This document shows, in pieces, positions 6,802-62,855 of a stretch of 64,000 nucleotides of DNA. The stretch covers positions 34,720,001 to 34,784,000 of the forward strand of contig NC_086381.1 in NCBI RefSeq assembly GCF_036588685.1, in the 5' to 3' direction. The notes beneath the pieces were generated by a model. It did not search any database. It was not told the origin of the DNA and worked only from the letters and a program-made list of their open reading frames with translations. The DNA comes from Mytilus trossulus. Its lineage: Eukaryota. Position 1 is the stretch's first letter, and the number at the start of each line of letters is the position of its first letter. A program made the translations under genes and the position numbers.

Positions 6802-9800
6802 TTAAATTTTGGAATTCTGAATATCCACAGGTGCCATACCGCCAAGGGTATTGTTAGAATATGGCGGTGGTTGTGCTATGGTATTGCTCGATGACGGAGG
6901 GTAACCAGTATTTGGCGGGTAAGCTGTATTTGACGGGTATCCAGTAGACGGTGGCGGGTAATTATGAGGATAATTTGGTTGCTGTGCAAGGTATGTAGTG
7001 TTTCCATCGTAATATGTTTGCTGTCCTGGTAAAAGATAAAGAATAGAATGATAAAAATAAAGAATATTACTTCAAAATCATTTATACAGCTATTATACAC
7101 TGGTTATTTCAGAGAAAGATTGAAAGGGATATCTGACATAATCCAGTATTTCAGATAATATTGACCTAAATTTTTTCTATAAGTAATATGCATAAATGAA
7201 TATTCTTCTGTATTTTCGATAAGGTATTAAACACATGGCAGAATTTTGGATTATAATACAATAATTTCATGTTAATTATGCACTGTGCAATGTATTATCA
7301 ACCAGATTTAAGTACATCAGAAATGTATATAATTATGTATATGTCTTCAAAAGTAACAAACAAGCAATCACAAACACAAAGCCCTTTTTTAATGCATATT
7401 TTTATGAATAAAATATGATATTGAATAAAACAAACCGATTTGAGATGCGTTGGTATAGGCTACAGTTGTACCGGATGTTGCTGTAGGCTGTACGATTTGG
7501 CCATGTGATCCTGAGGACTTCGCTACTGCCTTACAAATGCAAACAACTATTGCAATAACAACTCCTAAAGCAAACAGACATCCAACCACTATGCCAGCTA
7601 TCACACCTGTACTTCTGTAAAATATGTAATTTAATCTCATTATTATCTCGCATAATCTATTTGTTAAGAAGATTGTTATGTGTTCATATCGTTCTGAGAT
7701 ATCATGTAAACACAAGGATCGAGATTTGATGATATTTGCTATTGATATATAAAAAAGAAGATGTGGTATGATTACCAATGAGACAACTATCCACAAAAGA
7801 CCAAAATAACACAGACATTAACAACTATAGGTCACCGTACTCTTCAACAATGAGCAAAGCCCATACCGCATAGACAGCCATAAAAGGCCCCGATAAAACA
7901 ATGTAAACAATTCAAAACGAGAAAACTAACGGCCTTATTTATTTTTAAAAAAATAACGAAAAACAAAGATGTAACACATAAACAAACGACAACCACTGAA
8001 TTTACAGACTCCTGTCTTGGGACAGGCACATACATAAATAATGTGCCTTTGAGACAACTTTTGTTTACAAAGTCGAATTTAATAAAGCTAAGTGAAAATA
8101 ACGAATTAATCTCTATTTCTTAGTGAGTCACGAGTTGAAGGGTGGTCAGCTTTTCAGATGGAAAATTCAAGCTTTTTTGGAATATTTTTTTTAGAATCCG
8201 TACGAAAAAATGAGTGACAATTCAGTGTAAAAATATTGGAAAACTTGAACAACATTTAGAAGGAAGTTATTTATCATAGATTGGTTACGGCAAAATAGTA
8301 ATAACGACACAGCTGTGTCATAAAACGACATCTTTTATCGTAATAACAACAACAAAAAACATATAGGCAACAAAACATTATCCCAACGGTCGCACCCTTC
8401 TCAAAATACCTGCATTTTTAAAATGATTTATTAAAATGATTACTAATTAAAATGACTTACACAACACTGACAGCATCAGAGTAGTCGTAGTATGAATAGT
8501 AGTGTAAACAGGTATCGTGACCATAGGTACCAGAGCAGAAGCCACTACAGTATGTAGAATAGACATACGAACCGGAAGTCTTGTAGCAGGTGTCAGCGAA
8601 TACTGTTATAGCTGTAAAATCAGATAGATTAAACAATAATAAACAGTAATATCACAACAGTACTTAACTCCGAAAAAAATTCTAAACGGAAAGTATCTGA
8701 TCAAATGGCAAAATCAAAAGCTCAAAGACATCCAACGAATGGAAAACAACTGTCATATTCCTAACTTAGTACCGGCATTTTCTTATATAGAAAATATTGG
8801 ATTAAAACTGGTTTCAAAGCTAGCTTAACCTCTCACTTGTATGACAGTCTCACCAAATTCCATTATATTGACAACGTTGTATGAACAACAAAAAAACGAA
8901 ATAAGTCCAAATGTCACAAATAGGGGTATAACAGCAACACGAACCCGAACGTTAAACAACAGATCCTGCTCTACATATGGCACCCGTCTTGTTGCTTATG
9001 TTATTACAAAACCGGTTAATAGTATAACTCGGTAGGTTACATTCATAAAAAATGAACGGGTTTATAATTACGACATTGTGGATTGAACCTGGTTTTATAG
9101 CTAGATTTACCTCTCACTTATGTGACAGTCGCATCAAATTCCATTATATTGACAACGATGTGTGAACTAAACAAATAGACGTTAAAGGACACATGTCAGT
9201 ATTACAGCAGTCTACATTGTGTTATAATCTCAATCACTTAAAAACCAACACATGTGTAATATAGAAGCACAAAATGGCATATAGATCCAGCATATTAGCA
9301 AAAATTAAACACAAAAAACACAAATTTACCATAGTACAAAAACACAATGATTGAATGTTTAAATACACAGCCACGTCATATATGTAACAAAGAAACATAA
9401 AAAGGCATATAGACAAAGCACATAGCAAAAATGAAAGACAAAAAACAAACATGTTATACAATGATATAATTGATCGTAAAATCGGATCAATTTTGTTGTG
9501 AGATATTTGTTTTATCTATGAGAAAGTTTGATAACTTGCAGTGTGAACATTTATTTCTTAAACAGTTGTGTTTTATCTGAAAGCAATATATGTAAAGCCA
9601 CGGAACCCGGGGATGAAGCATTCAGCTTTTCAAACCTTTTATATACGTTATTGTGCAAATGTAATAATCTCTTTATTTTACGCTTTTAAAAATCTACATG
9701 TTGAGAGATGATTACTGAGCTTATAGATGAAATTGAGGATAATTTATGTTAGAAAACTAATTGGCTAGCACCAAATATAATTCAGGCAAATATTTATATT

Positions 9801-10610: not shown

Positions 10611-13600
10611 TGTTATAATTCTTTTGCAGTCCTTTTGCGAATGTAATCCGTTTAAAAGAATCAATTTTCAAAAAGAGATCATAGAAACTTTCTTTTATTA
10701 CTCTTGTATAAATAAAGTACCAAATAAAAATGTTCGTACCTTGAGGTAACCAGAAATGTCAAATTTTGATATAGCTAATTAAATACTTCAAAACTAAATA
10801 AACCGTTGACAACGTTTAAACAATGCAATGTATATTAAAATAATAAAGCTAATCAATTTACTATTCCCAACATTATATCGATTTAAAGATTTTATAATTT
10901 CCTATTTTGTTGTAAAATGTACTTGCTCTAAAAATTGTTTAATTTATATTTTCAGTTTTTCCTCCTCTTTTCTATGAAAAAAGTAAGTATAGTACCGAAC
11001 TCCGAGGAAAATTCAAAACGGAAAGACCGTAATCGAATTGAAAAATCAAAAACTCACACAAATCAAACCAATTGATAAAACCTGTCATATTCCTGCCATT
11101 TTCTTATAATTTGATGCTGGGCTGAACCTGGTTTTATAGCTAGCTAGCGGAAACATTGTACAATGTATCATCAGCTTACAGATTTACGGAAAGTATCGAT
11201 TCTGACTGTTGACTCTGAAAGCAAAAATTACAGGGGTCGTTTCAAAAGTTAAATTAACGGCGCACTTGATTCATTAGGAGTTCATAAACGAAGCATACTA
11301 TCTCTCCACTGGCAATAAGAATTCAAACTGGAATATGGAGTTTTCGTAGGTTCACTAAAATCACATTTCACTCGGACCTGTCGTCAAGCTCATGACATAC
11401 AAATGTATATGAAGCCAGATACGTTATTTTGATACATTTTGCCTGCATGTTTAATGCCATAGTCATATATATAAATATGTACATACATAAGAACATTAAC
11501 ATAGCTGGTCCTCTGATATGAACATTTTCAAGTTATCGAGATACAAATGAATATCAATGCTAGGAAGCAATCTTTATTCTATACAAGGGAGAGGGTAAGA
11601 AGAAGACATTTCCAATAAACAAAACAGTACCAATATATCAATGAAGAAACAAATTAAGGACCAGTTCAAGTATAAAAAAAGTCAGACTCGATGAAAAATA
11701 TGTAGAACCAAAGTTTTCTTCTCAGCCCATCCCTCCTAAAACCAAAAACAAACAACTAAAAGGTCGCTAATTTATTAGTGGTGTCGGAGAAGCGGGAACA
11801 TGTAGTCAGTGCTAATCATATTACTGGAAAATATGTGCATACAAAATGATTCAACAGATGTGGTTTTGAACTTAGGGGAGTCTAAAGGGACCTGGTTCCC
11901 TTTTCTGGAAAGTTTTATTAAATTAACGGAAATGTTTGGCACAAACATGTATTCTGGGCAAACATGGCATCGGTGATTTTAATTTTTTTTATTAAGGTAT
12001 GGGTAATTTGTTAAAGGCACCCAAGACAAAAACTCGGACAAATTGTGGGGACTTTTGAAGGATTTGTAAACAGATGACAAACCTGATTTGATTATATATA
12101 TCACTGTGTAACATCTTTTTACCTTGAGAAGCTAATTATTTAGTACCTTTTTATCTAGAGATGACCCCTATTATTTTTACCTGTCGGAGTCGGTGTCAAC
12201 TGTCGGTACCGAGACTTTCCGTAAATGTAAATATAGTCAGTACTTCGCTTCATACATCATTTAAAGATAAACTCATCACAGATACCATATGACAGTTTTG
12301 AACTCCGAAAGCGAATTTTGTCTACAAAAAAAAGTTTAAATGGCCAAAATAGTAAACGAAGTTGAAGAGCATTATAGACAAACTATTCCGAAAGGTTTTG
12401 CCAAATACGACTAAAGTTAATTTATACCTTGGGTCGAAAATTCTTAGCATTTCGAAACATTCTGAGTTGTATTGACAGTTAATTTACACTTATATAATAT
12501 GACCATATCAATGATAATTCACATCAGCACATAAGTGCTGACTTCTGAATCCTTTTTAAATTCTTCGTTGATAATTATTTGTACGAAACTAAGGTTTCAA
12601 CTCACTCACACAATTTGACCTTAAATACATTTTGCTATTCATTGTAGGTCCATATTTCGGTCGTACAGCTTCACAAGTTTCGAAATATTTATGAAACTTC
12701 AAATGTTTGGCTTTGAGTAAAATTTATTCATGATGAAGGTAAATAAAAAAAAAGAGTTCGAACGCACCAAAGTGGTATAAAGTGTTATCTTCACTTCACT
12801 TAGTTGTTACCACGTCTTGTGGATCCATTCGACTCAACTCGCCCGATTCCGTAACCTCATCTAGGAGAGTAGCGGATTTTACCGAGGATTGCCGAATGCT
12901 TGTGGATCGTTTGTCCCTGATGATATCATCAGCTCAATAGTTAGTGCGTCACACAGCATAATGTGTTTTTTTTTAATATACAGATTAAATGGTCTAAAAA
13001 ATACACAAATGGAAACTTAAACAGATTCTTCTAACTGACGAAGAAAAATGAAAAATAATGTCAAACATAACGGAGATATGATGAAACAAGAGTGTGTATG
13101 CAGTAAAGGCTTTTGCGAAACTGAAAGTCGTTTTCTCTTCCTGTCTTTTTTGCACAAGGATAATAGTTACGCTGAACGGTGCCCACTGGTCACCCTATAA
13201 ATAGTACTCTTCTGTGTAGTAATATTGTAGTTCTAAAAATAGAAAACCAAAAATAGACAATTCTTCTTTCTATTTAGCAATACACCATAGATCTAAAGCC
13301 TATCACCGTCTGTATTATCTGTAAGTAAAATTAACGTACTGAGCAATTGAATACAATGAATAACACAAACTTCAGTTTAATGAAGTTATTCAAAGCAAAA
13401 TATTTGTTTCATCCATTTTGCATGATTTGTCATTTGTGATGACACGTTTTTTAAATGTTCGAATCACAGACTAGAAGGAAATCTTCTTTTTTCAGAAGTC
13501 CGCGGAAAATGTAGATAAGAGTGGTATGTATGCATTTAATGTATTGTATGAAAACATTTAATATGATGGCAACATACACTATGTTTATATAAAGCTGCAA

Positions 13601-13779
13601 CTATCAATCTTTTAATCTTTTTGAACTTAAAACTTGCAATCGTTTGGCTACATAGGCTTGATTGAACGAATCATTTTTTGTTTCATAATTACCTTACACA
13701 AATATTTAATTAGATTACATGTGGTCATCTTAACCAGAAATAGGATTTGTTAACCTCTGTTGGCCTTAATATGCTAGAA

Positions 13780-16145
13780 TGGGGTAACTTCTGGTCACCT
13801 TATTCATATATAGGATTTGGTGACCTCTGGTCACCTTCTGTAAATATTGGATTTGGTGACCTCTGGTCACCTTATGTAAATATTAGATTTGGTAATCTCT
13901 GGGATCTTATGTTAATATTGGATTTGGTTCCGTCTGGTCATCTTATGCAGATTTCAGATTTGGTTATCTCTGGTAATTAACATTTTCATACAACTAGTTG
14001 ATGTTTTTCATATCATTTGTAAAAAGTTTGAGACAATCAAAGAAAAAGAGAAAAGAAGAAGAACAGGTTTGATATACATTATACATGTTATAGGTCAACA
14101 AGAATATAGAATATTATTTTATTAAGTTTGATATATCGATTAAACTTTACACAATGAACATTATCTTTCACGATCATCTACAAACAAATCTAAGAAAAAT
14201 CCTTGATCTTTCAAACATTGCCAAGGACATGGACAGTTGATAATTTAGTCAATTTCTTTTAATCCTCATCAGACACTTTTGGATACATAAAATTTAATTT
14301 ACTAATACAATTATCATATGTAGATGAGAGTGGTACGTATGCATTTAATTTATTGTAATAAATATTTAATATGATGGAAACACACAGAATGTTTATATAA
14401 TGCTGCAACTATTCAACTATTATTCTTTTTGAACTTAATAATTGCAATCGTTTCTGGTAAAATGGCCACTCAGGCTTGATTGAACAAATCATTTTTTGTT
14501 TATTGATTACCTTACACAAATATTTATTTTGATTACATGTGGTCATCGTAACCAGAAATGGGATTTGATAACCTCTAGTGGCCTTAGCATGCTAGAATGG
14601 GGAAACTTCTGGTCCCCTTATTCATATAATGGAATTGGTGACCTCTGGTCACCTTTTGATAATATTGGCTTTGGTGACCTCTGGTCACCTTGTGTTAATA
14701 TTGTATTTGGTAACCTCTGGTCACCTTATTCATATATTAGATTTGGTTACCTCTGGTCACCTTATTCATAGTTTAGATTTGGTTACCTCTGGTCACCTTA
14801 TTCATATTTTAGATTTGGTTACCTCTGGTCACCTTATTCATATTTTAGATTTGGTGACCTCTGGTCACCTTATGATAATATTGGATTTGGTTATCTCTGG
14901 TCACCTTATGTTAATATTGGATTTGGTTATCTCTGGTTTCCTTATGTTTATATTGGATTTGGCTATCTCTGGTCACCTTATGTTAATATTGGATTTGGTT
15001 ATCTCTGGTCTCCTTATGTTTATATTGGATTTGGTTACCTCTGGTCACCTTATGTTAATTCTAGCTTTGGTTACCTCTGGTCACCTTATGTTAATATTAG
15101 ATTTGGTGACCTTTGGTCGTCACCTTATTTAAATAATGGATTATGTTACTTCTTGTCACCTCATTCATATATTAGATTTGGTGACCTCTGGTCACTTATG
15201 TTAATATTGGATTTGGTAATCTCTGGTCACCTTATGTTTATATTGGATTTGGTTATCTCTGGTCCCCTTATGTTTATATTGGATTTGGTGTACCTCTGGT
15301 CACCTAATGTTAATTCTAGCTTTGGTTACCTCTGGTCACCTTATTTAAATATTAGATTTGGTGACCTCTGGTCACTTTAGGTTAATATTGGATTTGGTTA
15401 TCTCTGGTCATCTTATGTTATAGAATATTATTACATGAAGTTTTATATGCCTATAAAACTTAACACAATAGACATTATCTTTCATGATCATCTACAAACA
15501 AATATAAGAAAAATCCTTGACCTTGCAAACATTGCCAAGATCATTGGCAGTTGATAATTAAGTAAAATAATACTGATCCTCATAAGATAATTGAATTTAC
15601 TAATACATTTATCATTTATTTATATTCTTTTTTCAGAAGTCCTCAGAAAATGTAGATGAGAATGGTATGTATGCATTTAATTTATTTTGTCAAACCTTTA
15701 ATATAATGAAAACATACACTATGCTTATATAATGCTGCAAATATAATTCTTTTTGAACTTAAATCTTGCAATTGTTTCTGGTAAAATGACCACTTAGGCT
15801 TGATTGAACAAATCATTTTTTTTGTTTCTTGATTACCTTACATAAATATTTAATATTGATTACATCTAAACAAGAAATGGGATTTGTTAACCTGTGCTGG
15901 CCATAACATGCTAGAATGGGGTAACTTCTGGTCACCTCATTCATATATTGGATTTTGTGACATCTGGTCACCTTGTGTTATTAGATTTGGTGACTTCTTG
16001 CCACCTTTTGTTAATATTGGATTTGGTGACCTCTGGTCACCTTATGTTATTAGATTGGGTGACCTCTGGTCACCTTATGTTAATATTTGATTTGGTTACC
16101 TCTGGTCACCTAATGCTGATTTCAGATTTGGTTACCTCTGGTCAT
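13780..16145 (+). repeat. Left arrays of a 36-bp tandem unit in three blocks (~13780-13980, ~14600-15415, ~15920-16145) within a triplicated segment
   Basis: Unit ~TTGGATTTGGTGACCTCTGGTCACCTTATGTTAATA, seen as 12-aa periodicity in the ORF track. Flanking non-array sequence is itself repeated (GTAGAT.AGA.TGGTA.GTATGCATTTAAT at ~13510, 14320, 15652). Confidence 0.92.
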
Positions 16146-18489
16146 CAAAACATAAGTCATGTTATGTTTTTTTATCATTTGTAGGAATTGTAAGACAATC
16201 AAAGAAAATGAAAAAAAGAACAAGAACAGGTTTGATATGCATTACTGGTTCAGCAAAACTATATTTTATTGTATATTAGTCAATACACTTGATTCTCAAA
16301 GAAAACAGTTTTTGCTGGTTAAATTACATATATTGGTGATCTCGTGGTTTTTTTTTAAAGCATTCATAGAGTAGTTACATGGTAGGTAAGGAATTGTGAA
16401 TGGGTCGAAAGGAACATTCAAACTAAAATTTGGAGAACAAACTGACAAAGCTGGACCAAAAAATTAAAAAAGATTGAAATTCAAATTGCAATCATTATAA
16501 TTCAATATAGAAAAAATAAAACTGAGCAACATAAACCCACCAAAAACCAGGGTGGTCTCATGTTATCTAGAATGGTTAGCAAATCCAGCTCATTATGCGG
16601 TGCCCATGATATTGTTCATGCTTGAGTTTAGGATCCCTTGGTATATTACTGTATCATTAGAAATCATATGTCTACTGTGAATCATATACATGTCACTTTG
16701 CCAATCTGTAAGACATTTTTTTAAGTTGTAAGAAATTTCATAACGGTGCCTAATATGTCTTATTCCATATATTTTTCAGCTTAACTGCAAGAAAAGATCA
16801 CAACTGTATCTCACCTCAGTTCCAGGTGATGTTGACTATCAAGTTAAATGCTTTAACCGAGGCTCCTGTCGATAACGAATCAACCAAAAAGGCTGTTTTC
16901 CGAAAAAATGAAAGGGACATCTGCCCAAAAAAAGGATGACAATGAAAAAACTATGTAAGTGTTTGAGGGGAATTCAATTGTTCAGATTTTACGAACATTG
17001 GATCTATAATGGCTACAAAAGCAATCGTCTTCTTGGCATCCTTATTACATACTAAGAGTATGGAATAAAATACACAATAGAAAATGCAAACAACTAGATT
17101 AACATGAAATATATAAAACATACATTTTCCAAATACCATGATCATTATGTATTCATCTTCTTAACAATCAATTATACACTGAGTATTCTCATCTATTTTT
17201 CAATAATTATTCTAGACTAAATTTGAAACAAAATTCAGTTCATAAATTCATAATCAAGTCTATAATGCAATCTATCTTTTTGCACTCGAGGTCTACAAAT
17301 GTATTATATAGAAAATGAACAATTGTGTTAATTGCGAATGGAAATGATTCAAACACAAACATACTACCAGCTGTTCAAAAATAGATTTTGTTAGAATATA
17401 ACTCTATGGACACGTGTAATATGCCAAAGAGAAAACAACCCGACCAAAACGTAAAAACAACTCAAGGTTGTGCAAGTTTCATATTTCTCTGTGTACTAAA
17501 TAATAAACTTATCAAAGCAAACTGACATGCAATCAATCATTTTAAAATTAATCGCATCGTTAGAATACGAACTATAAAATCATATACAATCTACTTCTTA
17601 CAGGTCATAAACGTAAAACAATCCACACTACATTTTTATCGGAAAGCTAGGTAGAACAATTGATGTACAAATTACTATTTGATTTGGCCTTACAATTCGA
17701 TTTGGTCCTATGTTTTATTGTAGATATGTATAAAATTGCTATTCTCATTTATTTTTAAACGGTTTAACATGCTCTGTTTTATTGTAGCTAGGAAACATTT
17801 GAAATTATTGAATAAAATATTTGTTATTAATGACATAAATTAAGCATTATAGTACCAACATACTAAAACATTTTAAAAAGAATATTTAAGTCAATTAAAT
17901 ACATTTTTGTAAAGTATTTTCTTTGTTCAGATTAAATTAGTCTTATTAAAACTAGAAGTCAGAATTAAAATAGTGTCATTATATAAAATAATGTAGGTAA
18001 AGAAATGTCCTGTAATAATAAAACTGCTGTCTTAACTTATATTTGCAGAGAATTTATTGGCCATGTTATAGGCGAACTAAATAAAACAAATGTTAACAAG
18101 GCAATTCATGGGAAAGTTTTGAGGCCTTTTGGAAGACAATAGAGACAATGCTGCCAGATAATGATTTATTAGACGCATCACACGTATTATCTTAACTTCA
18201 AACATATTTGATCATTTGCTTAAAACATATAACCTACTTGAGACAGCAAACAGACCTAGTCAAATGTATATATATATAGCCAATTTATCTGTTTGACAAA
18301 ATCTTCATTAGGGATAGGTATTAGTTATATTAAATTATATACATTTGGTAACATCAGTATCTTTGCAAAACATATCAAGAGCAAACTGTATATGTCCTAC
18401 TTTTAAAGCCTTTATTCACCAATGTAACATATACATTTTTTGAATGAATATCAAGAAAAAGCAGTTTTTCTAAATCAGTATAATATTTC

Positions 18490-21400
18490 ATTATTTTGGT
18501 CATTGAAATAGTTTACGAATGGATTCTTTCTTTCTGTGGGTCGATTTGAAACTGCCATCATCATTAACTTTACGCCCCTGTTTTTTACAACACATTTTCG
18601 GCTTACTGAAGAGTCATGATCAGTTTTTGAACTTTTGGATTTTCTGCTTGGAAACAGCGGATGTTGCTTTCGCTTTCTTGTTATTTTTGGAAAAGTTGGT
18701 TGTCTTACAAATATATAATGCCGTTGTGATTGCTTGTTAAATAGTCTTTTTTGTTCACGTCAATTGTCAGGAAGTTATCATTGTTTACATATATACTCAA
18801 TTTTTCTTTTAATAGCCTGTTCGGTTGTTTCTTTGTCTTCCTTTAATTGTTGTCTTGTTTCATCAATTGGGGTAGACTCTATGTCAGGTGATGAAAATAC
18901 CATTTTTTGCTACCATCACACAAATACAATGTATACCATGGCTATTGGCAAAACATGTACATTTAAATGAGGTCAAATAAACAACTGATACATTTCCCAA
19001 TCTGGACAAAACCTCTAGATCTGCGCCCTACAGTGAGGTCGATGTTCCTTTTAGACGCAATAAATTCAGCTTAATGAACATGCTTACACATCCATAAAAA
19101 ATAGGAGAGAATGGAACATAAATAATGCCTTATACCTTTATGGTTTACTTTCAATTGTACAACCTTCAAACAAAACCACTAATGAACATTCAGTAAAGAT
19201 TAACTTAAATTAAATCGCATTGTTTTAGAAAAATTGATGAGTCAAATGATTATTTGCACTTGTATAACCTGATGACGCCTTGTTGGAAGACAAAAACAAT
19301 CAAAATCGAGGAGACTCTTAACCCAAAAGACATTCACAACAGTAAAAAAATAAAACAATAAACAACGCGAATTCCACTAAAAACCTGAAGTAGAATTAGA
19401 TGCTCCAGAAGGCTAAGCATTTGTGGGACCATATACAGCACCCGCGAAATTAATAATCTTGATTTCAACAATTCTTACTTGATGGTGTACTTTTAAACAT
19501 TGTTGATCTGACTTAAGATAATAAAAAAAAAACATACCTCTTGTTGTTGCAGCTGGACAATTGCACACTACATTGACAATGTCTACATTATAAATCGTCC
19601 CAAATGCTGTCTGTGATGGAACAGTGCATTCTGTGGATGAAGTCCATTGTATCATTTGTTCAAGTTCTGCCTTGAGCATATTCTCTGCTGTCAATTTACT
19701 TTTGTCTTCCCTTTGTCCTCCCATATTTTTCAAGCGACTAATCTTTGCGAGTTCATCTATATTGCTAAAATTACGATGTTTTTTTTATTTGAAAACATAA
19801 TTCAAAGATCTATTAATAAATAATTTCTTAAAAAATTGAATTCACAGTATTTAATATTCAATGTAATGAAATTGCATCTTAAATTGAAATCATCTTTCTA
19901 ATTTCAGACGATTCAAGTGAACGATAAGAAGAACAGGATTGTGACAAAATTAAACTTACTTACTCATAAAACATAGTTTCATTTACATGGAGTAAGATTA
20001 TTAAGTCCTCTACTCTGCTATTGGCATACCCACCAAGGAAATGGTATTTCATGCCCAGGAAAAACCTGAAAATGACAAAATGTTATTGAGTTTGAATTTA
20101 TGATTTATGTTTGAAGGAACAAATAGAAAGTACATAAAATTTTAATGTGCATACATTTGAATGTTATAAGTAGCATTATATTTTTTGTTTTAATGTTTTC
20201 ATACACATCAGGTTTTGCTAGACTACATTTTTCATTTGTCTGCTTTTATGTAATTATCGACTTGCATTGACGATTATGATTTTTGTATTAAATTTGCATA
20301 ACCTATCATGAAAGAACGGCAATAATCTCTCCGTATAGTTAAACAATTGTATAGTTTATATCATTTTAAGTCTTTGGTTACCCACGAAGAAGTAGGATAT
20401 AGACAAAGTGTAACACTTTTTATACTTCAGGTCATAAAAACAGAGACAGTTCAGTTTATCCCCAAAATAAAATATAATTAGTTACTATTATCAAATAGAT
20501 AATGATTAGATGATGCTTAAAATTTCGATTTTGTAATATATAAGGTGTATAGTAATAAAATGTATTAATAACCTTTCAACTAAGTTATTTGTATCTTGAT
20601 CTTAATGAAAAAATATGTCTTCCATAGTTGGTCCATCGACATCCCAACTTGTCAGTACACCAGTTGTCTAACAAGTAGTCTGTTATTTGTTTGGAAGGCA
20701 TCTTCTTTTGCAACATTTGAACTTTTTGAAAAGTATATTTGTTGATGAAAATTTATATTGACACATACAGGAACAGAATCTTAAGATTAAACACGCATGT
20801 ACTCATAAGCATTGTATATTTATAGGTAAGATCTTCAAATCGCATCAAGCAACTCTTTGTACTTTTAAATTATTTTACTGATATAATTCAATAGAGATTC
20901 ATTGCTATATGTTTTAGTGGGTTCTTTTTATCTTTTATCAACCAAAATTTATGTTTTTTGTAAGTGTCACTAGTTCATGAGATAAATATTATTATGTAAA
21001 ATTATTTATCTAATATTCTTTGCCAAAATTCAACTGAAATTTGTGTTGACGTTAATTGTATTAAATTTGATATGCAGGAAAAGATGTTTCTTTAGATGAA
21101 TCTTTCTTAGCATTGTCTATTGGTCAATTGTTAAATAACTATCACTGCACGAATATGTGAATAATGTCATAGTTTAACCTGTAATTTTTACAGACAAATA
21201 TATTAAAAGATATAATTGAATGGCCTTTATTTATCTTTTATATCCATATCAGATTTGGTCTTGACTCCGAATGATGTAACTAACTGTAAACAAATAACAT
21301 GACGAAAATGGAGTGTTAATAAGCAATGATATTGAATTTGAATTATTGTCAACTTTGATACCCACAAACCTTGGACATAAATCAAATCCATGATTTTCAG

Positions 21401-21550
21401 CCGTAGTCTTCAGAGATCTCACAACTATTTTGACAACCAGTATCATTTGACGAGATATATTACAAAACATGAGTGCCCCGGCCTTGCTGTTCGTCTCTTG
21501 CAAAAAGAGCATAGAATGAATAACCATAGGCAGTTAAACAAAACATATGT
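18490..21550 (-). pseudogene. Spliced MULE transposase with SWIM zinc finger, decayed and 5'-truncated
   Basis: ~21545-21370 reads YGYSFYALFARDEQQGRGTHVL* with a frameshift. ~20720-20573 reads DYLLDNWCTDKLGCRWTNYGR..H*DQDTNNLVER. 20065-19964 reads FFLGMKYHFLGGYANSRVEDLIILL. 19764-19538 ends VPSQTAFGTIYNVDIVNVVCNCPAATTRG, then MCKHVH* from ~19091. The first two splice junctions are phase-consistent; the acceptor before MCKH is lost. Stops and frameshifts present. Confidence 0.85.
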
Positions 21551-21867
21551 TGTAAGTTTATTGTCCCACAGTTAAACTTTTTTTTAAACGTATCAATATT
21601 TTAAATTGAAATTTCCATGATTATATATAAGTATATACCTTTATATGTAACATCTAAAACCACCACATTTTCTCCTAGTTTCATTATTCTTTTTCTTTGT
21701 GCTTCATTCTGGTAAATAATTACTAATGGTTATACCCCCCTACAATGTAAATGTTACATATTTATAAATGCCCATAAGTATGAGTATGAATTACATATTT
21801 TATGCTAAAATCATGTTCATATAATGGAAGAGAAGACGACAAACTAGCTACATTGTACTCATATTAA

Positions 21868-22144
21868 ATAACCTCAATTAAAACTGAAAAGACAAAAATG
21901 TAAACTCTATTGACAAAATATATGACGTGTGAACAAGTATAGCACTTAAAACAATCAAAGGGATAAAAAAACGAAAATACAAAACATCTATTATAAGAAG
22001 TCAGATATACGTTCAGTCTACAGAAAACTCGTCTGTACAGCTCTCATTGAATCATTTTACGGACAAAACATATACTTGTTCACACGTCATATATTTTGTC
22101 AATAGAGTTTACATTTTTGTCTTTTCAGTTTTAATTGAGGTTAT
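21868..22144. repeat. Perfect 74-bp inverted repeat with 129-bp spacer
   Basis: 21868-21941 is the exact reverse complement of 22071-22144. Confidence 0.95.
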
Positions 22145-22159
22145 ATTCACAATTTTGGA

Positions 22160-23620
22160 AGGGTGACCAGAGGTCACCATAGTCAATATATGTGTAGGGT
22201 GACCAGAGGTAACCATATTCAATATCTTTGTATGGTTACAAGAGCTAACCACATTCAACATCTTGGTAGTGTGACCAGAGATTACCAAATTAAGCATATA
22301 AGTAGGGTTAATAAAGTTACCTAAATTCAATATTTATGCATGGTGTCTAAAGAAAAATATTTGTTTATCTATGTATAGTGATCCGAGGTAACCACATTCC
22401 AAAAAGGCAATTGCTATATATATTTGTTGACAATGGCAAAATAATTAGATATATGTGTACAGCGACCAGAAGTTACTATATTAATTATAAAAGTAGCGCA
22501 AAAAGTGTGAATCGAGATATCCGATGCTAACCAAATTCATTTTTTGTGAATTGTTATAATAAGTAACATAAGTCAATTTATTGAATGTTGGCCAAAGGTT
22601 ACCATTTTCAATATCTTTGTAGGATGACCAGAAGTAACCATAGCTAATATCTGTGTGGGTGACCAGAGGTAACCATTTTCAAAAGATGTGTAAGGTGACC
22701 AGAGGTAACCTCATTCAATATCTGCATAGGGTGACCAGAGGTAACCATATTCCAAATTTTGGTAAGATGACCAGAGGTCACCATATTCAATATATTTGTA
22801 GGGTGACCAGAGGTAACCATGTTCAATATCTTTGTAGGGTGACCATAGTCAATATATGTATAGGATGACCAGAGGTAAGCACATTCGATATCTGTAATGG
22901 TTAACCAGAGGTTACCTTTTTCAATATTTGTGTAGATTGATCAGAGGCTACAACGTTCAATATATGAGTAGAGTGAACGAAGTTTACAAAATTTAATATT
23001 TAAGTAGGCTAAATATAGGTAACCAAATTCAATATGTATGCACGGTGACTAGAGATAACCAAATTATATATTTGTGTATGATAAGAGGTATCCAAATTCA
23101 AAATATGTGAAGGGTGACCAGAGGTAACCCCATTCAGTTGATGTGTGGGGTCACTTGAGGTATTTAAAGTTCATAAATGTATAGAGTGACCAGAGGTCAC
23201 CACAATCAATTATGTAAAAGGTGACAAGATGTAACAAAATTCAATATCTGAGAAGGCTTGCGGGGGTGACCAGAAGTAACCAAATTCAATATCTTTTAAT
23301 GTTTAAGAGAATTTAATGCATGTGTTGGGTGACCACAGGTAACCAATTTCAATATATGTGTAGGGTGACCAGAGGTCACCACAGTTAATATCTGAAATGT
23401 GACAGGATGTAACAAAATTCTATATCTGTTTAAGGTGGCAAGGTTGACCAGAGGTTACAAAATTCAGTATCTAATTAATTGTAGGTAAATTCAATATATG
23501 TAAAGGGTGATCAGAGGTTACCAAATTCAATATATGTGTAGGGTGACCAGAGGTCACCACAATTAATTATGTAAAGGGTGGTAAGATGTAACGAAATTCA
23601 ATATCTCTGTAGGGGGCCAT
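22160..23620 (-). repeat. Right array of the 36-bp unit, inverted relative to the left arrays (~40 units, many diverged)
   Basis: Repeated GGGTGACCAGAGGT[AC]ACCA.ATTCAATAT, the reverse complement of the left-array unit. Confidence 0.9.
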
Positions 23621-24699
23621 TCAATATATGTCATGAGAGTGCAAAATAGGACATTAGGGTTTTTTTTCTAAAAAAAAAAAAGCCATGTCACTCGCTTTAA
23701 GATATAAATAGAGTAAAGGGTGAATCTTCTATGCATTTTCAATTGTTTCTTTTTAGTGAATTATTATGATTATTGATTATTTGGTATTTTCTTTACTTTT
23801 TGTATCTCTCTCAACAGTATCCTTTGAAATATGGTTATTCCGGAACTTTGCATTAAGCTAATATCCGTTTTATATAGCAGCAATTATAAACTGTGTATCC
23901 CCTTAGTAACGTACTTTCACTTTAAACCGGAAATCATGTACTATTTTTTGTCGCGTATAGACTCAATTTTAACCGTTTCTGTTCAGGTGACCAGTGGGCA
24001 CAGTTCAGCGTAACTATTATCCTTGTGCGTCTTTTTTTCTCGATTAGTTGTCTTCCAAATATATTCTAGAGTTATTAGAAATTGATGTATATTGATTTGT
24101 TCAATTTATTGTTTTTAATTGTCTTGTAACTTTATATGCATATGTCTATAGATATATTTGTATTTATTTCAAAGGTCATTATATTGATTTTACATAAATC
24201 CCATTAATTTTTCAAATTGTTTTGTTCTTATTTCCAAGCATTTTTTTTTTGTATCTATGTAAGATTGAAACTTAAGTATCTTATAGCATACAGACAAAAT
24301 AGTTTGATAGGCAGTTTATGTCAAGAATCATGCTGATGATTTGCGCATTTGACTTCCTGATAATTTTCGCAATTAGTTTTGGTAAGTTTATAAAAATATT
24401 GTTTGAATCCATGTTGTTTTTGTGTGTATTTTATCAAAATTTCAAATAATTGACTAGAAAATATTTAGAGGGAGATATGCAACCTCATTTGGGCATGCGA
24501 CAATCGATAAATATTCAAAACTTCTTTGAATGTTTGATTGTCCCATGCTCGTACCAAACAACTGCATGGTTTTGTGTTGTGTGTGTGTTTAAAGGATGGC
24601 GTACAAATCTTTGTCGTTGACGTGCACTAGATACCTTACTTTATTAGAATTACAAATATCTGATAATCTTAGCTAAAATTATATCTATTTATAGGTGTA

Positions 24700-26775
24700 A
24701 TGGCAGAAAGTGAAGCACAATTTGAAACCTTTATGTAAGTTTTCTTCATATTGTTCTATACAAATTAATTCCGTTGAAATAGAGGCTGAAAATACCTCAG
24801 AGGGTAAAAACTCACAAGTCTAAGAAAAAACGATAAATATTTGAGAAAATAAGGAGAGACGAAGAAACAGTATATAAATTGAAATCACTACACTAAAACC
24901 CTAAAAGGACTGAGAAACATGCCAATTATGGTGTGTATCATTGGAATTATAGAAGACAAAACAAAATAATCAAACACATCCAAAAACAAAGTTATATGAA
25001 GCTGTTAAGTATATGCTCAGAAAAATAATATATATAACTCAGTCATTATATTCTGTTCGCTATGATCTCTTATGGGCGAAAGTGGCCGTTTGATGGCATT
25101 GACGGTAAATAATCTTGTTATGGACACAGATGATGGAGGGAAAAAAACATACAGGCTATATACATGTGCATTCATAGGAATACGCGTATACAAGAACGAT
25201 TATTAAAATGGCGTGTTTGTACAATGAAACGGGGCAAAACAACAATACACCAAAAAATAGCATTTTATTTATCATATTAAAGGTTCAATTAATTGATGAA
25301 GATACTTCTTTGTAAATTGAACAGAACTGACATCTTAAAGCCGGAACATATTTTCGTTGCAACTTCTAATTGATGCAGCTGTACCATCAATTGCTATTTT
25401 GGCTATATCCAATAGTATATGAATATTCATAAAACACTTCTTACTTTTGTAGTCCAGCAGGAGGCTATGTGATGATTTTAATAGCAACATTGATTGGTCT
25501 AGCTATTATAGGCGCTTTGATCTTCGTTATTATCCAGGGAAGGAGGGCAAAATCTCCAATATCTAGATGCCCTGAGAGCTCAACCAGTGGACCAAAACCT
25601 TCAGCTCTTGACTTCAACAAAACCATGGCATTTACTAGAGGTGATGCGTTTCTTCGTTGTTTTCTGTGTTCTGTTGTCTTTGGATTTTTCTAGCTTTGAA
25701 ACATTCAAAAATGTGTGTTTTTAAAATGTGTGTTTTCAAAATGTGTGTTTGTTCTTTCTTGTCTGTTTTACGTTCTACATACATTTGATGAAATGCACGT
25801 GGTGGATTGTTGGTTCATTCAATTCATTGTATAAAAATTTCAGAATAAAAATGATAGTTAGCTTTGCTGTTATGGCATACAAAATATAAATTATCAAACA
25901 CCTTTTTTATGAACATCTAACTATTTGCTTACTCGCAAATTGTTAAAGGGTTAAAAGAAATTAGCTTTTAAAACGCAAGTTTAATTTAATCATATATTCT
26001 TGCAGATAAATACTTCAAGGAGTCAAAGAAAAAAGAAATGAAAAAGAAAAAACCGTTTAGAAAATTCATAGGCCAACAACCCATCACGTCAGAAGAAAAA
26101 AGGCTATTTAACAATGGCGAGTCTTTAGGATCAAATTCAAGCTCGCTATGTAATGGAGAAGTTGAGCGGCAGTCACCGGAAGTTGTTTCGCGAAATAAAA
26201 TGATTTTGAAGAAATTCTTTTCTAATTCCTCCTCTAAAATCAATGCACTTAGCAAGCTATCTACTGTAGACCAGGGCAAGAAAAATCATACCACTGACCG
26301 ACATAATATGAAGGGGAAAACAAGTCCGAACAAACAGTTAAATCAGTCCGGAAAAACAAGTTCCTTATCAATTTCGAATATCGATGTTAGTCAGTCAATC
26401 GATACGAACACGGGATGGGATGTTGCAGCAAATAAATTTGGTCAATCATCACATACTAAAGGGTCGAAACGAATTGTTGGGGGTTTATCATCATTTGTTA
26501 AGGATAAGATAGTCCCAAACCCTCCAAATTCAGGATGGGATGTTGCAGCGTCAAAATTCGGACAAACATCCGAAGCAAAAGGATCTAAACGAATCGTTGG
26601 TGGTTTGCCAGCGTTTATGAAAGTAAAAATTCTCGAAGAAAGTAGAAAAAGAGAATCAGAAATGTTAAATGGAAACAAAAAGATGCAAAGCGTTCAGAAA
26701 AACTTCGGAATATCAGCAAATCCAAACAGATATGTGTGGACAAAAAAACATGTAAAATCGCAGAAAGGAGCGTAA
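24700..26775 (+). CDS. Unrecognised single-pass membrane protein, isoform A (330 aa, basic K/S-rich tail)
   Basis: Exons 24700-24734, 25453-25640 (TM YVMILIATLIGLAIIGALIFVII followed by QGRRAK) and 26006-26775 join in frame via GT-AG (phases 2,1). The last exon contains the 245-aa ORF. Confidence 0.65.
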
Positions 26776-32436: not shown

Positions 32437-33933
32437 TTACTCTATGTCGTACAGTGCAGCATACCCATCCGTTTCATTGCAAATTAATAAGCGGTCTCCT
32501 TGTGCGTCGTAGAATAGTCCTGTTGGCCAGTTAAGGCCATCCGATTCTCCACTCAACAATACTTTGTAACGTCGGCCATCGGGAGAAGTCACCATTACAT
32601 TGTTTGTTCTATAGCCGACAACAAAAACATTACCTTCGGCATCAGTCGCTATTCCCTGCTCTGAAACAACATTGTCATACCCGTAGCACCATAATTCATC
32701 GCCGTTAAAGTCACAGCAGTTTACGGTGTTTTCTGCCCAGTCAGTATAATAAATTTTATCGGCGTGAAGCGAAATATAAAAGACATGATCTACATTGATA
32801 GGAATGACGGCTATCAACATTCCAGCAATACTTATTACTTCAATTCCCTTTCTGTAGACCACGACGAAGAGATTCCCATCCCGATGGCAAATTCCCCAAC
32901 AATCATTTGCGGTTTTAATAATTCTATCACATTTATGTTTCGAAATGTCTAAAATTTCGAGTTGTCTGCCCCTACCATAGGTTACTGCAACTCGGCGGGG
33001 ATCGATTACAACAACATCGAATGGTTTACCGGAAACACTAATATCGTGGTGATGTGATCCCTCTTGGTCGTGAATTACAAGTCTTTCGTTTTTCTCATCG
33101 ACGAAAAGAAATTGGTTGCTTGGTAGTATAATACACTTCTGTACCGACAACTGGGCTTTATTCTTTATCCTTATGTCTGTTTTAACTTTCAGTCTTATTT
33201 CGGCAATATTTCTTGCAGGATTGAGGTTTAATTTCAAATCTTCATTTTTACAAGATAACTGTAATGATGGTGATTTTTCGGATATTGCAATTGCGCCAAA
33301 AGATTCAATTTCTAATACCATTAGTTCTGCTTCAGTACTGGCGTCAAATTCCAAATTTGAATGTTTTAAGCCATGAAGTAGAACAGTTATGGGTTTCGTA
33401 AGTCGCGTCAATTCTTTCTTTACCTTTTTTGCTATAATGAAATTTGTCGGAGATTTTTCTTCCTCGGTAATATTTTCAAAATTTATTATCAGTGACGCAA
33501 GCTTTGATTTCTTATTTTCAAGATCTTTAATGGTTTCCTCGATTTGAGCGGCGAGTTTGGTATGTGTATCTGATAAATCATCCATTAGATCTTGTTGCAA
33601 TCGATCAAGATGGTCATTGATCTTATCCCTAAAATGTTTAATGTCTGCTGCGATAGTATTCTTCTGCTCTTCAAGTTGTGTTCTGTTTTCTTTTTGATCT
33701 TGAAGAAAACTTTCTATATTTTTCTCCATGTCTGCAGAGGCTTGCTTAATGTCTGATAATTCACTGAGGTCAGCGTCTTTTGATATTTGATCAACGTCAA
33801 TTAAGTTACGACATCCTTCATGTTTGCTTTCAATGCATGACTCGCAGATGACTTCGTCGTGTCTCGGACAATAATAGTCAAGTTCCTTCCCATGAATAAT
33901 GCAATGGTCAAATTTCTCAGTCACTTCTGACAT
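32437..33933 (-). CDS. B-box / coiled-coil / NHL-like beta-propeller protein (RING-less TRIM-like), single coding exon, 498 aa
   Basis: B-box HCIIHGKELDYYCPRHDEVICESCIESKHEGC, then a heptad-rich helix, then NHL-like repeats (GIATDAEGNVFVVGYRTNNV; GLNWPTGLFYD). AG acceptor immediately before the ATG; candidate upstream exon donor near 36004. Confidence 0.9.
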   Translation of the reverse strand: MSEVTEKFDHCIIHGKELDYYCPRHDEVICESCIESKHEGCRNLIDVDQISKDADLSELSDIKQASADMEKNIESFLQDQKENRTQLEEQKNTIAADIKHFRDKINDHLDRLQQDLMDDLSDTHTKLAAQIEETIKDLENKKSKLASLIINFENITEEEKSPTNFIIAKKVKKELTRLTKPITVLLHGLKHSNLEFDASTEAELMVLEIESFGAIAISEKSPSLQLSCKNEDLKLNLNPARNIAEIRLKVKTDIRIKNKAQLSVQKCIILPSNQFLFVDEKNERLVIHDQEGSHHHDISVSGKPFDVVVIDPRRVAVTYGRGRQLEILDISKHKCDRIIKTANDCWGICHRDGNLFVVVYRKGIEVISIAGMLIAVIPINVDHVFYISLHADKIYYTDWAENTVNCCDFNGDELWCYGYDNVVSEQGIATDAEGNVFVVGYRTNNVMVTSPDGRRYKVLLSGESDGLNWPTGLFYDAQGDRLLICNETDGYAALYDIE

Positions 33934-34599
33934 CTTTGAAAAATCTGTATGCTAAAATTTAATATCAAATATAATTTTTTTATACCGTACAATTCTTTGT
34001 ATGTTTAGACCGGTATGTCAATCAATGACATTGTTTAAATAGTTATATACATTATCTAATTTTGCTTTGAAGTTTCTTTTGTTAACAGATGACAGAAACT
34101 ACCGAATATTATACTTATTTGGCCTTTTCAAATGTTTTTTTTTATTTGAGCGTCACTGATTAGTCTTTTTTTTAGACGAAACTCGCGTCTGACGCAAATA
34201 CTAAATTTTAATCCTAGTATATGTGATGAGTTTATATATCACTAGATTTCCGTTGTTTTTATTCTATGTGTCATTGCATTGGACTGTTATACAGGGTTTG
34301 TTTAAATTCATGCGATGGAGATTCATAAGTGCTCTCATGAAGTTTGTGAGTAAACACACCTCCCCTATTGCCTAAACATGAAACCCGATTTTATGGAGGA
34401 GTCTACTTGTTGTTCAAAAAAAAATACCAGAATTAGGCGTTATTTTTAAGAACAATGTTTTAGCGGTAGACGACATATGTCTGAGGTACGCACCACAGTT
34501 TAGGAAATAAAATTAGAATTGGCGAACTACAAAATGTTAAATCCTCTTCTATTCAAGGCTTTCCAAAACATTATGTTCAAGTTTGCGTCATAAATGTGG

Positions 34600-38248: not shown

Positions 38249-40579
38249 ATGCTGGTTTACATAGCAATGAAACTGCTGATATTCATCCTGTTATGTGTGT
38301 TATCAAGTGCAGACTCGCATAACTACGAACGGTTATTACAGGTTTTGACAAATTTTGGAATCCAGGAAAAGCCATCGATTGTTGGTCATGGCTTGCAGGA
38401 AAGGGGTCAATTAGACCGTAAGTATTCGGACTACAACTTCCATTGTATGATATAAACACCATATGTCATACTATATGCATTAAAGTAGCTACAAGTTCAA
38501 TAAGTAACTTAACTATATTTAAAGCAGCAATACAGGGAGGGAGATACTAAACGTGCAATATATCAGCACTCAACGATAAAGACAAATACCAAAGAGAGAC
38601 AACAAAAAGATATATTAACATTTATTGAAACATTACTCAGAAATCAAAGTTTGATCAATGAAATATCTCATTACATCTCGATGCTCGGCAAATATTTTCA
38701 ATTTAGAAAGGATTCAGCACTAATTATAAGGTAAATGTAAAGCACTTTTCTTAAGTAATTAAAGCATAATTTAACCCCAAAAAAGTTAAATCACAAATAA
38801 ACTGAACTCCGGGGAAAAAATTCAAAACGAAAAATCCCTAATCAAATGGCAAAATTTAAAGATAAAACACTTGAAACGAATGGACAACAACTATCATATT
38901 CCTGGCTTGGTACAGACATTTTCTTATGCAGAAAAAGGTGGATTTTATAGCTAGCAAAATATCTCTCTGGTATGACATTCTCATCAAATTTAAGGCAATT
39001 GCTGGTATAACGTCACATAAGTAGTTGTTCTTGTGAGTTGTGATAGTAATTTCAGTAACATACAATATACTTGTATGTAAAAACGATAAAAGCACCCTGT
39101 ACACGTACGGATAGACATTTTGTGTTTCCAAAAATTTTCTCGACAAATTTAAAGTAAGGTATTGTTTACATACTTAAACAATCAATGTGAATTTACATTC
39201 TTTTCAGCAACTTACCATGCTTATATTTGTGAGAATCAGTTTTTGACTATTAGATGCCCTATTGGTTATATCATTAGAATTATTGAATCTAATTTTGGAC
39301 GACAGGGTTCCACACATTGTCGAGGAAGACATGCTGACCAACTGTGTTACACAGCGTGGACAATACAGGAGCTAGGTACACACTGTTATTGGAGACAAAA
39401 ATGTACTGTCTTTGCCTCAACAAAAATATTTGGAGATCCATGTACGGATGTGGACAGGTATCTGTCTCTAAGTTATCAATGTGAGAGCATCTCAGGTAAG
39501 GATTGGCTTGTATGCGTTGTTTATATGGGTGTCATACATAATATTACATACATGCTGACTTTAGGGTGGGGCATAAACATTAAAATCATAACCTTATAAG
39601 TTTTTTAATGACCGAAAGTCTGATTAATCAAATGTTTTGTTAGCTGATGACACTAAATGACGTTTTTGGATATAAGGTTAAAGATTTGTCTCTATTGCGA
39701 ATAGACAACAACAAAACAGAATGAATCCATACACAAATATACTCTGCTTTTATAAATTCAACACTGTTTTAAAATGAATAGCCAGTCAGAATTTTCTTTA
39801 TTGCGCTTATTTTTTCATTATTCAAGGAATGACTGCAAAATATTTTCTGTCTATGAAGAAATAACATAAAAAAATGTGGTGCACATTGAATAACGCGCGT
39901 AGCGGGTTATTTAACAGTGTGCACCACATTTTTTCTGTTATTTCGAATAGACAAAAAAATATTAAAGTCATTTCTTATAATTTAATTCTAAATTCCATTT
40001 GAAACCGTAGAAAACCAGGAAAAAACGTTGATGACGTTACGGTCACATGACTAAACTATGTCTATGGGCTCATAACAAAATAACATCAGCCAATCAGAAG
40101 ACGCGTTACATCCAAAATTAAATTATATATCAATAAAAACATGTTTAGTAGATTTAATTGTAGTAGTAGTCTTGGTGAATAGCTTGTGTAAATTTAGTTT
40201 TTCTATTTTAGGTCGTTAACCTGAAAAGTAAAATGAAACGAGGATCAGGACTATACGGCAAATTTGTAGACTCATTTGTATAAACTCATAAAAGACAGCA
40301 GGCTTCTAATTAAAATTTCCCGTTTGAATGGTTTTACACTAGTATTTTTTGGGGCTCTTTATAGCCTGATATTCGGTGTGAGCCAAGGCTCCGTGTTGAA
40401 GGTCGTATTAAAACCTATATATATAATGGTTTACTTTTATACATTGTTACTTGAATGGAGAGTTGTTTCATTGACATCATACCACTTCTTCCTATATCTA
40501 TATTAGTTGGAATGACACATATTGAGATGAGCAATTATTGACAGAAAGCTGGTTTTCATTTGTGTGCTTCACAGGATGA
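38249..40579 (+). CDS. Secreted SUEL-type (rhamnose/galactose-binding) lectin, single domain, ~153 aa
   Basis: Exon 38249-38417 encodes a signal peptide (MKLLIFILLCVLSSA). Exon 39208-39495 encodes ICENQFLTIRCP...SNFGR...FGDPCTDVDRYLSLSYQC (8 Cys). Probable terminal exon 40575-40579 (G-stop). All junctions phase 1, GT-AG. Candidate non-coding exon donor at 37808. Confidence 0.88.
39820..40126. mobile_element. Palindromic non-autonomous repeat in a lectin intron
   Basis: Imperfect hairpin 39824-39976 (AAATGTGGTGCACA...TGTGCACCACATTT; GAAATAACA...TGTTATTTC) followed by a ~150-bp tail. Superfamily not assigned. Confidence 0.6.
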
Positions 40580-62800: not shown

Positions 62801-62855
62801 CTGAAAAAAAAGTTAACAGCTATTAATACTTCTATAACTTCTAAATAATAAAGTT

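Follow-up and report, generated by a model that had tools for sequence, protein, structure and literature searches.

A Mutator-like element of Mytilus trossulus with well-kept ends, recessed subterminal arrays and a defective transposase gene, probably moved in trans

The window analysed here is a stretch of 64,000 nucleotides from the mussel Mytilus trossulus (contig NC_086381.1, positions 34,720,001 to 34,784,000 of the forward strand; positions below are those of the window). It contains a Mutator-like element (MULE) of 10,877 bp at 13152-24028, bracketed by two exact copies of a 9-bp target-site duplication (TSD), GTCTTTTTT, at 13143-13151 and 24029-24037. This 9-mer occurs four times on the + strand of the window, both TSDs counted. 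Terminal inverted repeats (TIRs) of 43 bp lie at 13152-13194 (+) and 23986-24028 (-). They are identical at 42 of 43 positions (BLASTN E 3e-15), and the likeness ends at base 43. The TSD length falls within the 8-11 bp given for MULEs (PMC6446971). Within the window, nothing outside the element matched it, and an Rfam scan of 13000-24200 gave no match.

Six exons of a transposase gene are left on the minus strand, from about 21739 to 18500. A frameshift-aware alignment with relatives in other Mytilus species found 388 of 459 residues identical over these exons, together with five TAA stops and six frameshifts; a seventh frameshift, near 18907, appeared as a frame change in tblastn. AG is absent from two acceptors, and a third acceptor is not clear. 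The first retained exon (21639-21739), with the first catalytic Asp and one stop, corresponds to residues 448-481 of an intact relative, which first matches the window at residue 448, so that about 447 N-terminal residues are gone. The MULE-domain exon (21370-21539) has lost its acceptor and carries one stop and one frameshift. Nothing was detectable at 20736-21369, the expected place of the exons for the second Asp with CxxH and for the next 40 or so residues (scores 35 and 32 versus shuffled maxima of 40 and 43). The exon with the catalytic Glu (TNNLVE; 20573-20735) has one stop, one frameshift and no clear acceptor, the exon behind it (19964-20065) is open, and so is the exon with the CxC of the first SWIM-like finger (19538-19764). 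The last exon (18500-19093), recognised by tblastn and the frameshift-aware alignment, encodes the end of the first SWIM-like finger, the second finger and the C-terminus; it shows a lost acceptor, two stops, a deletion of about 59 nt and five frameshifts in total. The first catalytic Asp and the Glu are therefore kept in this copy. No score above those of shuffles was obtained for the second-Asp/CxxH exons, the ~40 residues after them, a piece of 19 residues or any of the N-terminal pieces tested, and Pfam recognised no family in the six fragments of the window. All 15 matches to the best-kept exon were Mytilus proteins, 85-97% identical, the top one from M. trossulus; relatives of the transposase are present in five Mytilus species. 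With stops, frameshifts, lost acceptors and missing exons, this copy is unable to move itself.

Between the TIRs and the transposase remnant lie tandem arrays of a 36-bp unit. A tandem-repeat scan located three of them on the left (+), L1 at 13783-13974 (5.4 copies), L2 at 14608-15422 (22.5 copies) and L3 at 15920-16144 (6.4 copies), and a right set at 22150-23606 (-), in blocks at 22160-22291, 22592-23136 and 23173-23606 (178-bp higher-order unit). The right arrays are inverted relative to the left ones, and the two consensus sequences agree at 29 of 36 positions. Units match one another at 70-81%. The arrays begin 588 bp from the TIR on the left and 379 bp on the right, and the two spacers have no significant similarity (best shared match 16 bp, E 0.09).

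The inner 17 bp of each TIR (13178-13194 on the left) form an imperfect dyad, GGT(G/T)ACC-N3-GGTCACC, that is also the core of every array unit. Scanning with up to three mismatches gave 70 matches at 58 distinct sites (0.08 expected by chance), all of them within the element: 2 in the TIRs, 33 on the left and 23 on the right. The dyad of the array units agrees with that of the TIRs at 14-15 of 17 positions and is the best-kept part of the unit, with a conservation of mostly 0.8-1.0 versus 0.5-0.7 in parts of the linker. From these features the dyad is likely to be the site that the transposase binds, and we treat it as a candidate. In Muta1, binding and excision increase with the number of subterminal repeats, and a terminal palindrome matters for binding (PMC5499845). 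The arrays may instead be passenger intronic minisatellites that grew from a TIR-like motif, with the 43-bp TIRs alone being important, which would be compatible with the rest of our interpretation. Their distance of 0.4-0.6 kb from the ends, the position of the left ones between putative exons (described below) and the mere 70-81% likeness of their units speak for this alternative. So do two M. edulis gene models that translate an array directly upstream of the first retained transposase exon and may reflect an ordinary intron feature. The high conservation of the dyad, its match to the TIR and the inverted orientation of the arrays at the two ends speak against it, and we judge it unlikely, though far from negligible. 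The two M. edulis models imply in any case that the adjacency of array and exon predates the M. trossulus subfamily; it results either from a shared N-terminal deletion or from an intronic location of the array.

A reading of the window from its sequence only, made before this analysis (the sequence-only reading), had described TIRs of 43 bp with one mismatch around an intact 9-bp TSD, diverged arrays set off from the TIRs by 0.4-0.6 kb of non-homologous DNA, and a transposase killed by stops, frameshifts and a lost acceptor. The alignments bear out each of these points, and the damage to the gene exceeds what had been noted: five stops, seven frameshifts, at least two acceptors and whole exons. 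The loss of coding exons, a threefold macro-repeat in the left half and a perfect 74-bp inverted repeat had not been noticed before.

Several of the lesions are shared with other loci. The protein cluster of P0002 has eight members, all from M. trossulus RefSeq loci, on at least seven different contigs. The junction of the window's ~59-nt deletion and frameshift is present in six of the eight, and the remaining two stop before it. Protein P0186 ends at precisely the position of the window's stop at 19073; P0190 terminates in the frame produced by the frameshift at 18907, and P0213, from a ninth locus, begins in the window's shifted frame behind 21434. The four siblings of 148 aa show one or two residue differences among themselves; between the window and P0187 there are 4 in 147. 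Because these breaks are common to near-identical loci on different chromosomes, the lesions are older than the spread of the copies, and the near-identity of the copies implies that this spread was recent. Near-identical copies with some of the same breaks on several chromosomes thus point to a likely recent movement by an intact relative.

One could also suppose that an autonomous element inserted long ago and decayed in place, its ends staying clean by chance or through gene conversion. The 52 paired end bases, with one mismatch, leave a wide interval (95% interval 0.05-10%), and this copy has three residue changes seen in no sibling and a lost acceptor that is apparently its own. Decay at one site, however, cannot produce the same deletion junction in six of eight loci together with the other shared breaks, and it does not fit a left end that is near-identical across collapsed copies. 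We regard decay in place as largely refuted and give it hardly any credence.

The evidence on the left end came from read contigs of 4 of 22 runs, aligned to 11500-13760 (coordinates are raw, and two minus-strand records overrun 13760 at their start). Left-end contigs of run X1 had 2 differences in 202 bases at a depth of 420 and none in 121 bases at a depth of 542, while a flank contig of 1214 bases had a depth of 46.8. The left end is thus about 9-12 times as deep as the flank, in line with the number of RefSeq loci. A DNA joint between 13291 and 13503, not at splice sites, had a depth of 606 in X1 and 53 in X2 and was absent from X9 and X21 among the matches listed; it marks a second deleted form that lacks these 211 bases. 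Its depth in X1 equals or exceeds that of the full left end. Two pieces of the left flank, 12336-12563 and 12792-12943, are very high-copy repeats, with a summed depth of up to ~98,000 in X1.

Copies at other sites were also found. Record 5 of X1 joins a diverged left end and TIR to 28 letters of another flank. A search with the TIR pattern gave one locus, L001, in metagenome contigs and none in viral contigs. In L001, 28 of 28 outer bases of the left TIR are identical to ours, at a different site, the end of a Gypsy-type integrase frame (L001:29-1309). We take this frame to be of the Gypsy-type integrase/chromodomain-like kind, the domain names being assigned from its motifs. The nine bases beside the TIR of L001 form an A/T tract, as they do here, a hint drawn from just these two sites. 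Dispersed copies at independent sites, as expected of a MULE, are thus represented by TIRs on two other flanks and siblings on at least seven contigs, with paired TSDs for the present copy only. The presence of left end and flank in independent runs, and of relatives in five Mytilus species, led us to reject an assembly artefact.

These observations bear on two further explanations. The copies might have spread passively, by segmental duplication or within a larger mobile element, and the siblings' flanks, which were not seen, leave room for this. Yet the TSD abuts both TIRs exactly, the neighbouring 1.2-kb flank contig has single-copy depth with a climb at the TIR, and L001 and record 5 of X1 show the TIR next to unrelated flanking DNA. 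Passive spread is very improbable on these grounds. Alternatively, the TIRs might be those of another mobile family, with a dead MULE taken up as its cargo. In favour of this, no element was seen with both these TIRs and an intact transposase. However, the TIRs and the arrays have the dyad in common, the arrays adjoin this transposase at two M. edulis loci as well, and a 9-bp TSD fits a MULE (PMC6446971). We consider the capture of cargo no more credible than passive spread.

The explanation that we very much prefer is that of a non-autonomous, internally deleted MULE, whose transposase was likely dead before insertion and which an intact transposase from a related element likely moved here recently by cut-and-paste. 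The zinc-finger/helix-turn-helix region of that transposase would bind the 17-bp dyad at the inner end of each TIR. By analogy with Muta1, the arrays with their 56 additional dyad sites may load more transposase and help to pair the ends, and a staggered cut of 9 bp would produce the TSD. Selection would act on the cis ends alone, which would leave clean ends around a rotten gene.

Several points weigh against this account or limit it. The binding of the dyad is read from its sequence, and the repeats of Muta1 sit inside the TIR whereas the 36-bp arrays here begin 0.4-0.6 kb away from it. One mismatch in 52 paired bases has little dating power alone, and contig depth is a rough guide that gives no copy number. 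The siblings were seen as proteins only, without a view of their TIRs or TSDs. None of ten M. trossulus proteins has the second-Asp exon, and no intact transposase was seen among them, though gene models may skip this exon. Run X9 comes from another organism; its record 30, at a depth of 102 that resembles that of the adjacent flank contigs, matches the flank up to 13147, a position within the TSD, and then continues with 436 letters unlike the left end. The left end of the element is therefore absent there, but the contig does no more than fit an empty site; a clean site with a single GTCTTTTTT was not established.

The sequence-only reading had proposed an old non-autonomous derivative, recently inserted in trans, and had named an empty site and an intact transposase copy as checks. 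The shared breaks on different chromosomes and the near-identical left ends in many copies uphold its proposal. For its empty site, the evidence is the X9 contig, which lacks the left end at the matching flank. An active partner, which it took to be implied, has a counterpart in the intact 994-aa protein XP_052075386.1 of M. californianus but none among the ten M. trossulus proteins, and the same holds for its intact copy.

XP_052075386.1 (LOC127712818; P0203 below) was found among the cluster members and represents the intact type of the transposase. At its N-terminus Pfam identified an OTU-like protease domain (PF02338, E 4e-9, residues 56-151). In a model of the full protein the predicted local distance difference test score (pLDDT) of this region is mostly under 50, so that the OTU call rests on Pfam and motifs. 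The MULE domain PF10551 scored 45.9 bits (cut-off 27.6, E 8e-12), and other relatives were also above the cut-off. The catalytic residues are D476, D544 and E664, and C565/H568 form the CxxH motif (CWFH), so the DDE triad with (C/D)xxH behind the second Asp is present at the level of the family; the copy in the window lacks the second Asp and the CxxH. An upstream zinc finger, C295-x20-C316 with H341 and H344, is kept in nine full-length relatives. Two SWIM-like zinc-finger motifs lie at the C-terminus (one of them CxC..CxH at 766-779); the Pfam SWIM profile stayed below its cut-off in the Mytilus proteins and was above it in some relatives. The best match of the predicted model was ISCth4, a Mutator-family transposase (E 7e-7), followed by Hermes. 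The Mutator assignment of the sequence-only reading thus holds. A separate model of the N-terminal part showed a beta portion like yeast Aft2 (Z 6.0, root-mean-square deviation 2.9, 75 aligned residues, a middling match) followed by a helix-turn-helix, and Foldseek with the zinc-finger model gave no match at E<=0.001.

A profile search collected 1618 proteins at E<=0.001, 30 of them at E<=1e-30. Among 20 representatives the close relatives were from Astyanax, Pseudorasbora, Misgurnus, Chanodichthys, Leuciscus, Fundulus, sturgeons, Pleurodeles, Saccoglossus, Ptychodera and Panulirus; one weaker representative stood for green-algal members. A search with P0006 for relatives of at least 675 aa returned only a mis-fused gene model. 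In 68 other scanned relatives (one of them judged on five of the eight families listed) neither OTU nor FLYWCH was found, except for an OTU domain in P0199, which is an incomplete model of the Mytilus gene that also encodes P0203. Relatives in Astyanax mexicanus (P0018, P0166, P0171 and P0173) are intact, 746-749 aa long and 39% identical to P0203, with all catalytic and zinc residues, and the copies differ by 0-1 residue across several loci. The Astyanax family is likely a recently active fish MULE. Intact forms were also present in Brachyhypopomus and Pseudorasbora. MULE-MuDR repeats have already been listed in teleosts (PMC4746887), and the occurrence of MULEs in fish is therefore nothing new in itself; a 2019 statement describes the evidence for chordate MULE transposases as limited (PMC6446971), and the intact, multi-copy fish relatives bear on that statement. 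The relatives in Pleurodeles and Panulirus (P0022, P0178) have lost catalytic residues and kept the zinc fingers, and from their sequences they may possibly be domesticated genes. Gene models P0005 and P0012 of M. edulis and M. coruscus join transposase exons to host genes (HSD17B8, COL6A-like); these fusions are probably mis-annotated inserted copies.

The element is a member of the MULE superfamily and appears to work like a foldback-type MULE, with inverted arrays, here parted from the TIRs by non-homologous spacers. Its transposase resembles the insert-type WRKY-GCM1 MULE transposases, in which a finger with a 20-residue basic insert between its cysteines precedes the MULE core and SWIM (PMC1702500). 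P0203 has this arrangement: two cysteines around a basic insert within the range of 20-70 residues and a following H-x-H/HxxH upstream of the core, with SWIM downstream. Yeast Aft2 has been placed in the WRKY-GCM1 family, and Medicago has MULEs with an OTU fusion (Babu et al. 2006, PMC1702500). In the Medicago MULEs the OTU domain is C-terminal (PMC1702500), whereas the mussel type has it at the N-terminus together with two SWIM-like fingers, and the Z score with Aft2 is only middling.

Rehavkus has a 9-bp TSD and inverted subterminal tandem repeats (PMC6446971; bioRxiv 10.1101/2024.12.02.626372), and the subterminal minisatellite and 9-bp TSD of the mussel element match it. In contrast, Rehavkus is described with a PHD finger and with repeats inside long inverted termini, from arthropods and annelids (same sources), while the mussel element shows no PHD match, SWIM-like fingers, short TIRs and non-homologous spacers. 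No PHD finger was found in P0203; among 47 relatives, one distant one (P0150) has it. Phantom, Muta1 and Tm1 have in common with it the 9-bp TSD, a dyad at the ends, repeated subterminal motifs and non-autonomous derivatives that move in trans (PMC3169594, PMC5499845). Their own features are a FLYWCH finger, a transposase of ~500 aa and 12-14-bp repeats inside the TIR (PMC3169594, PMC5499845), as opposed to no FLYWCH match, a 994-aa multi-exon transposase and 36-bp units recessed from the ends. FLYWCH (PF04500) was absent from P0203 (E<=1), from 16 relatives (E<=0.01) and from 47 relatives (E<=0.001), one protein being shared between the sets and one judged on five of the eight families listed. 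FLYWCH is characteristic of Phantom (PMC3169594), and the entry for group 20 in Table 1 of PMC6446971 admits SWIM or no such domain as well, so that its absence only lowers the odds of membership.

Among other animal MULEs, MuDR-6_HM of Hydra is listed with an OTU domain; its entry gives 5227 bp and no TIRs (PMC6446971), and we compared it by description only. The curated bivalve MULEs come from the same host group, and several begin with repeated short motifs (PMC10294476). The five Mytilus families shown there have other termini, with lengths of 2.4-6.8 kb among those shown, and neither our TIR nor the dyad occurs in the consensus starts searched from that curated DDE library (Martelossi et al. 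2023, PMC10294476). No description of the present family was found in the literature searched, which did not extend to subscription journals and Repbase reports. The Mytilus family is probably uncatalogued. What is particular to it is the combination of short TIRs, recessed arrays, an N-terminal OTU domain, two fingers and many introns.

Three comparisons drawn in the sequence-only reading stand in part. Its likening to Phantom and other foldback MULEs holds for the repeat-rich ends but is loose otherwise, as there is no FLYWCH match and the zinc finger resembles that of the insert-type WRKY-GCM1 form. The layout that it called unusual is so in the recessed position of the arrays, but subterminal tandem repeats as such also occur in Rehavkus, Muta1 and Tm1 and in curated bivalve MULEs. 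An uncatalogued family agrees with the absence from consensus starts, but the comparison is limited to one curated bivalve library.

Maize MuDR resembles the element in its 9-bp TSD and possibly in a second, convergent unit that would start from the other TIR. In MuDR, mudrA and mudrB have a convergent layout. The putative second unit here differs in that it consists of splice motifs and one RNA contig, with no protein found. The maize mudrB gene is noted in PMC6446971.

This putative unit would occupy the left half of the element on the + strand. The left unique spacer (13195-13782) has a TATA-like TATAAATA right behind the TIR, a putative non-coding first exon up to a GTAAGT donor at 13321 and a putative 28-nt exon at 13496-13523; the transcription unit is proposed from splice and promoter motifs. 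At 13481-16244 (+), repeat comparison revealed three tandem macro-units of ~0.7-1.3 kb, whose non-array parts are 85-89% alike. Every unit contains an array and traces of two short putative exons, which are best preserved at 15637-15664 and 16185-16229. A further putative exon with acceptor and donor motifs lies at 16780-16954 (+), and its 3' part is also present in an M. coruscus copy, in which the read-through of P0015 matches 16954-17052. The 52-aa translation of the putative second-gene exon had no homologue in the protein search and no match in the Atlas. The 28-nt exon is present in two copies with four base differences between them and no sign of coding constraint, and we therefore do not claim a second protein. 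An RNA contig (record 22 of X21, depth 3.5) aligns as far as 13320, immediately before the donor, and has 30 loose letters; two other RNA contigs, at a depth of 2, cover intronic sequence. Together these give a weak hint of a convergent spliced + strand transcript across 13195-16954, with exons of 28 and 45 nt.

The right unique spacer (23607-23985, -) has a CpG observed/expected ratio (o/e) of 0.79, versus 0.43 for the element, and by its position it likely holds the transposase promoter. Between the transposase and the right array, a repeat scan detected a 277-bp segment (21868-22144) with perfect inverted ends of 74 bp (21868-21941 and 22071-22144). This is either a nested miniature inverted-repeat transposable element (MITE) or a repair scar. 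The segment can be read as TA-flanked and lies near the point at which the 5' part of the transposase gene is gone.

A wider picture can be drawn, which we consider speculative and rather improbable. The element would belong to an unnamed active lineage of animal MULEs, ranging from mussels and hemichordates to several fish orders and exemplified by the identical intact 746-749-aa transposases of Astyanax. Its mussel branch would have an N-terminal OTU deubiquitinase as a counter-defence or self-stabilising module, binding sites moved to intronic arrays and, starting from the left TIR, a convergent spliced second gene as an animal counterpart of mudrB.

Clean ends around a dead gene are the expected trace of mobilisation in trans, and the window itself is unsurprising in this respect. 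Its value is practical: for a mussel MULE that is large and rich in introns, it defines the ends, a candidate binding site, defective subfamilies and the type of the intact transposase. Libraries based on open reading frames would tend to overlook such a MULE, and many Mytilus genes annotated as 'uncharacterized' are debris of it. Presence/absence markers may be provided by recent copies, and the intact protein allows tests of whether recessed arrays raise transposition and of the role of an OTU domain on a transposase.

On the right, the element would sit a few hundred bases upstream of the start of a putative host gene at 24300-26775 (+), recognised by eye from a donor at 24382, an exon at 24695-24734 with an ATG at 24700 and a hydrophobic exon near 25453; its frame at 25990 had no Pfam match. 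Elsewhere in the window there are a CYYR1-like exon at 7389-7817 (-), a B-box/beta-propeller protein at 32437-33951 (-) and a SUEL lectin domain at 39153-39599 (+). A decayed frame at 41272-42035 (+) looks by eye like a retroelement remnant and had no Pfam match. Two tandem arrays are unrelated to the element, one at 43405-43947 (41-bp unit, 13 copies, 96% matches) and one at 53733-54168 (160-bp unit, 2.7 copies). The CpG o/e drops from ~0.83 in the flanks to 0.29 in 44000-64000, a region that seems to be occupied by a multi-exon gene on the minus strand; the drop is consistent with gene-body methylation.

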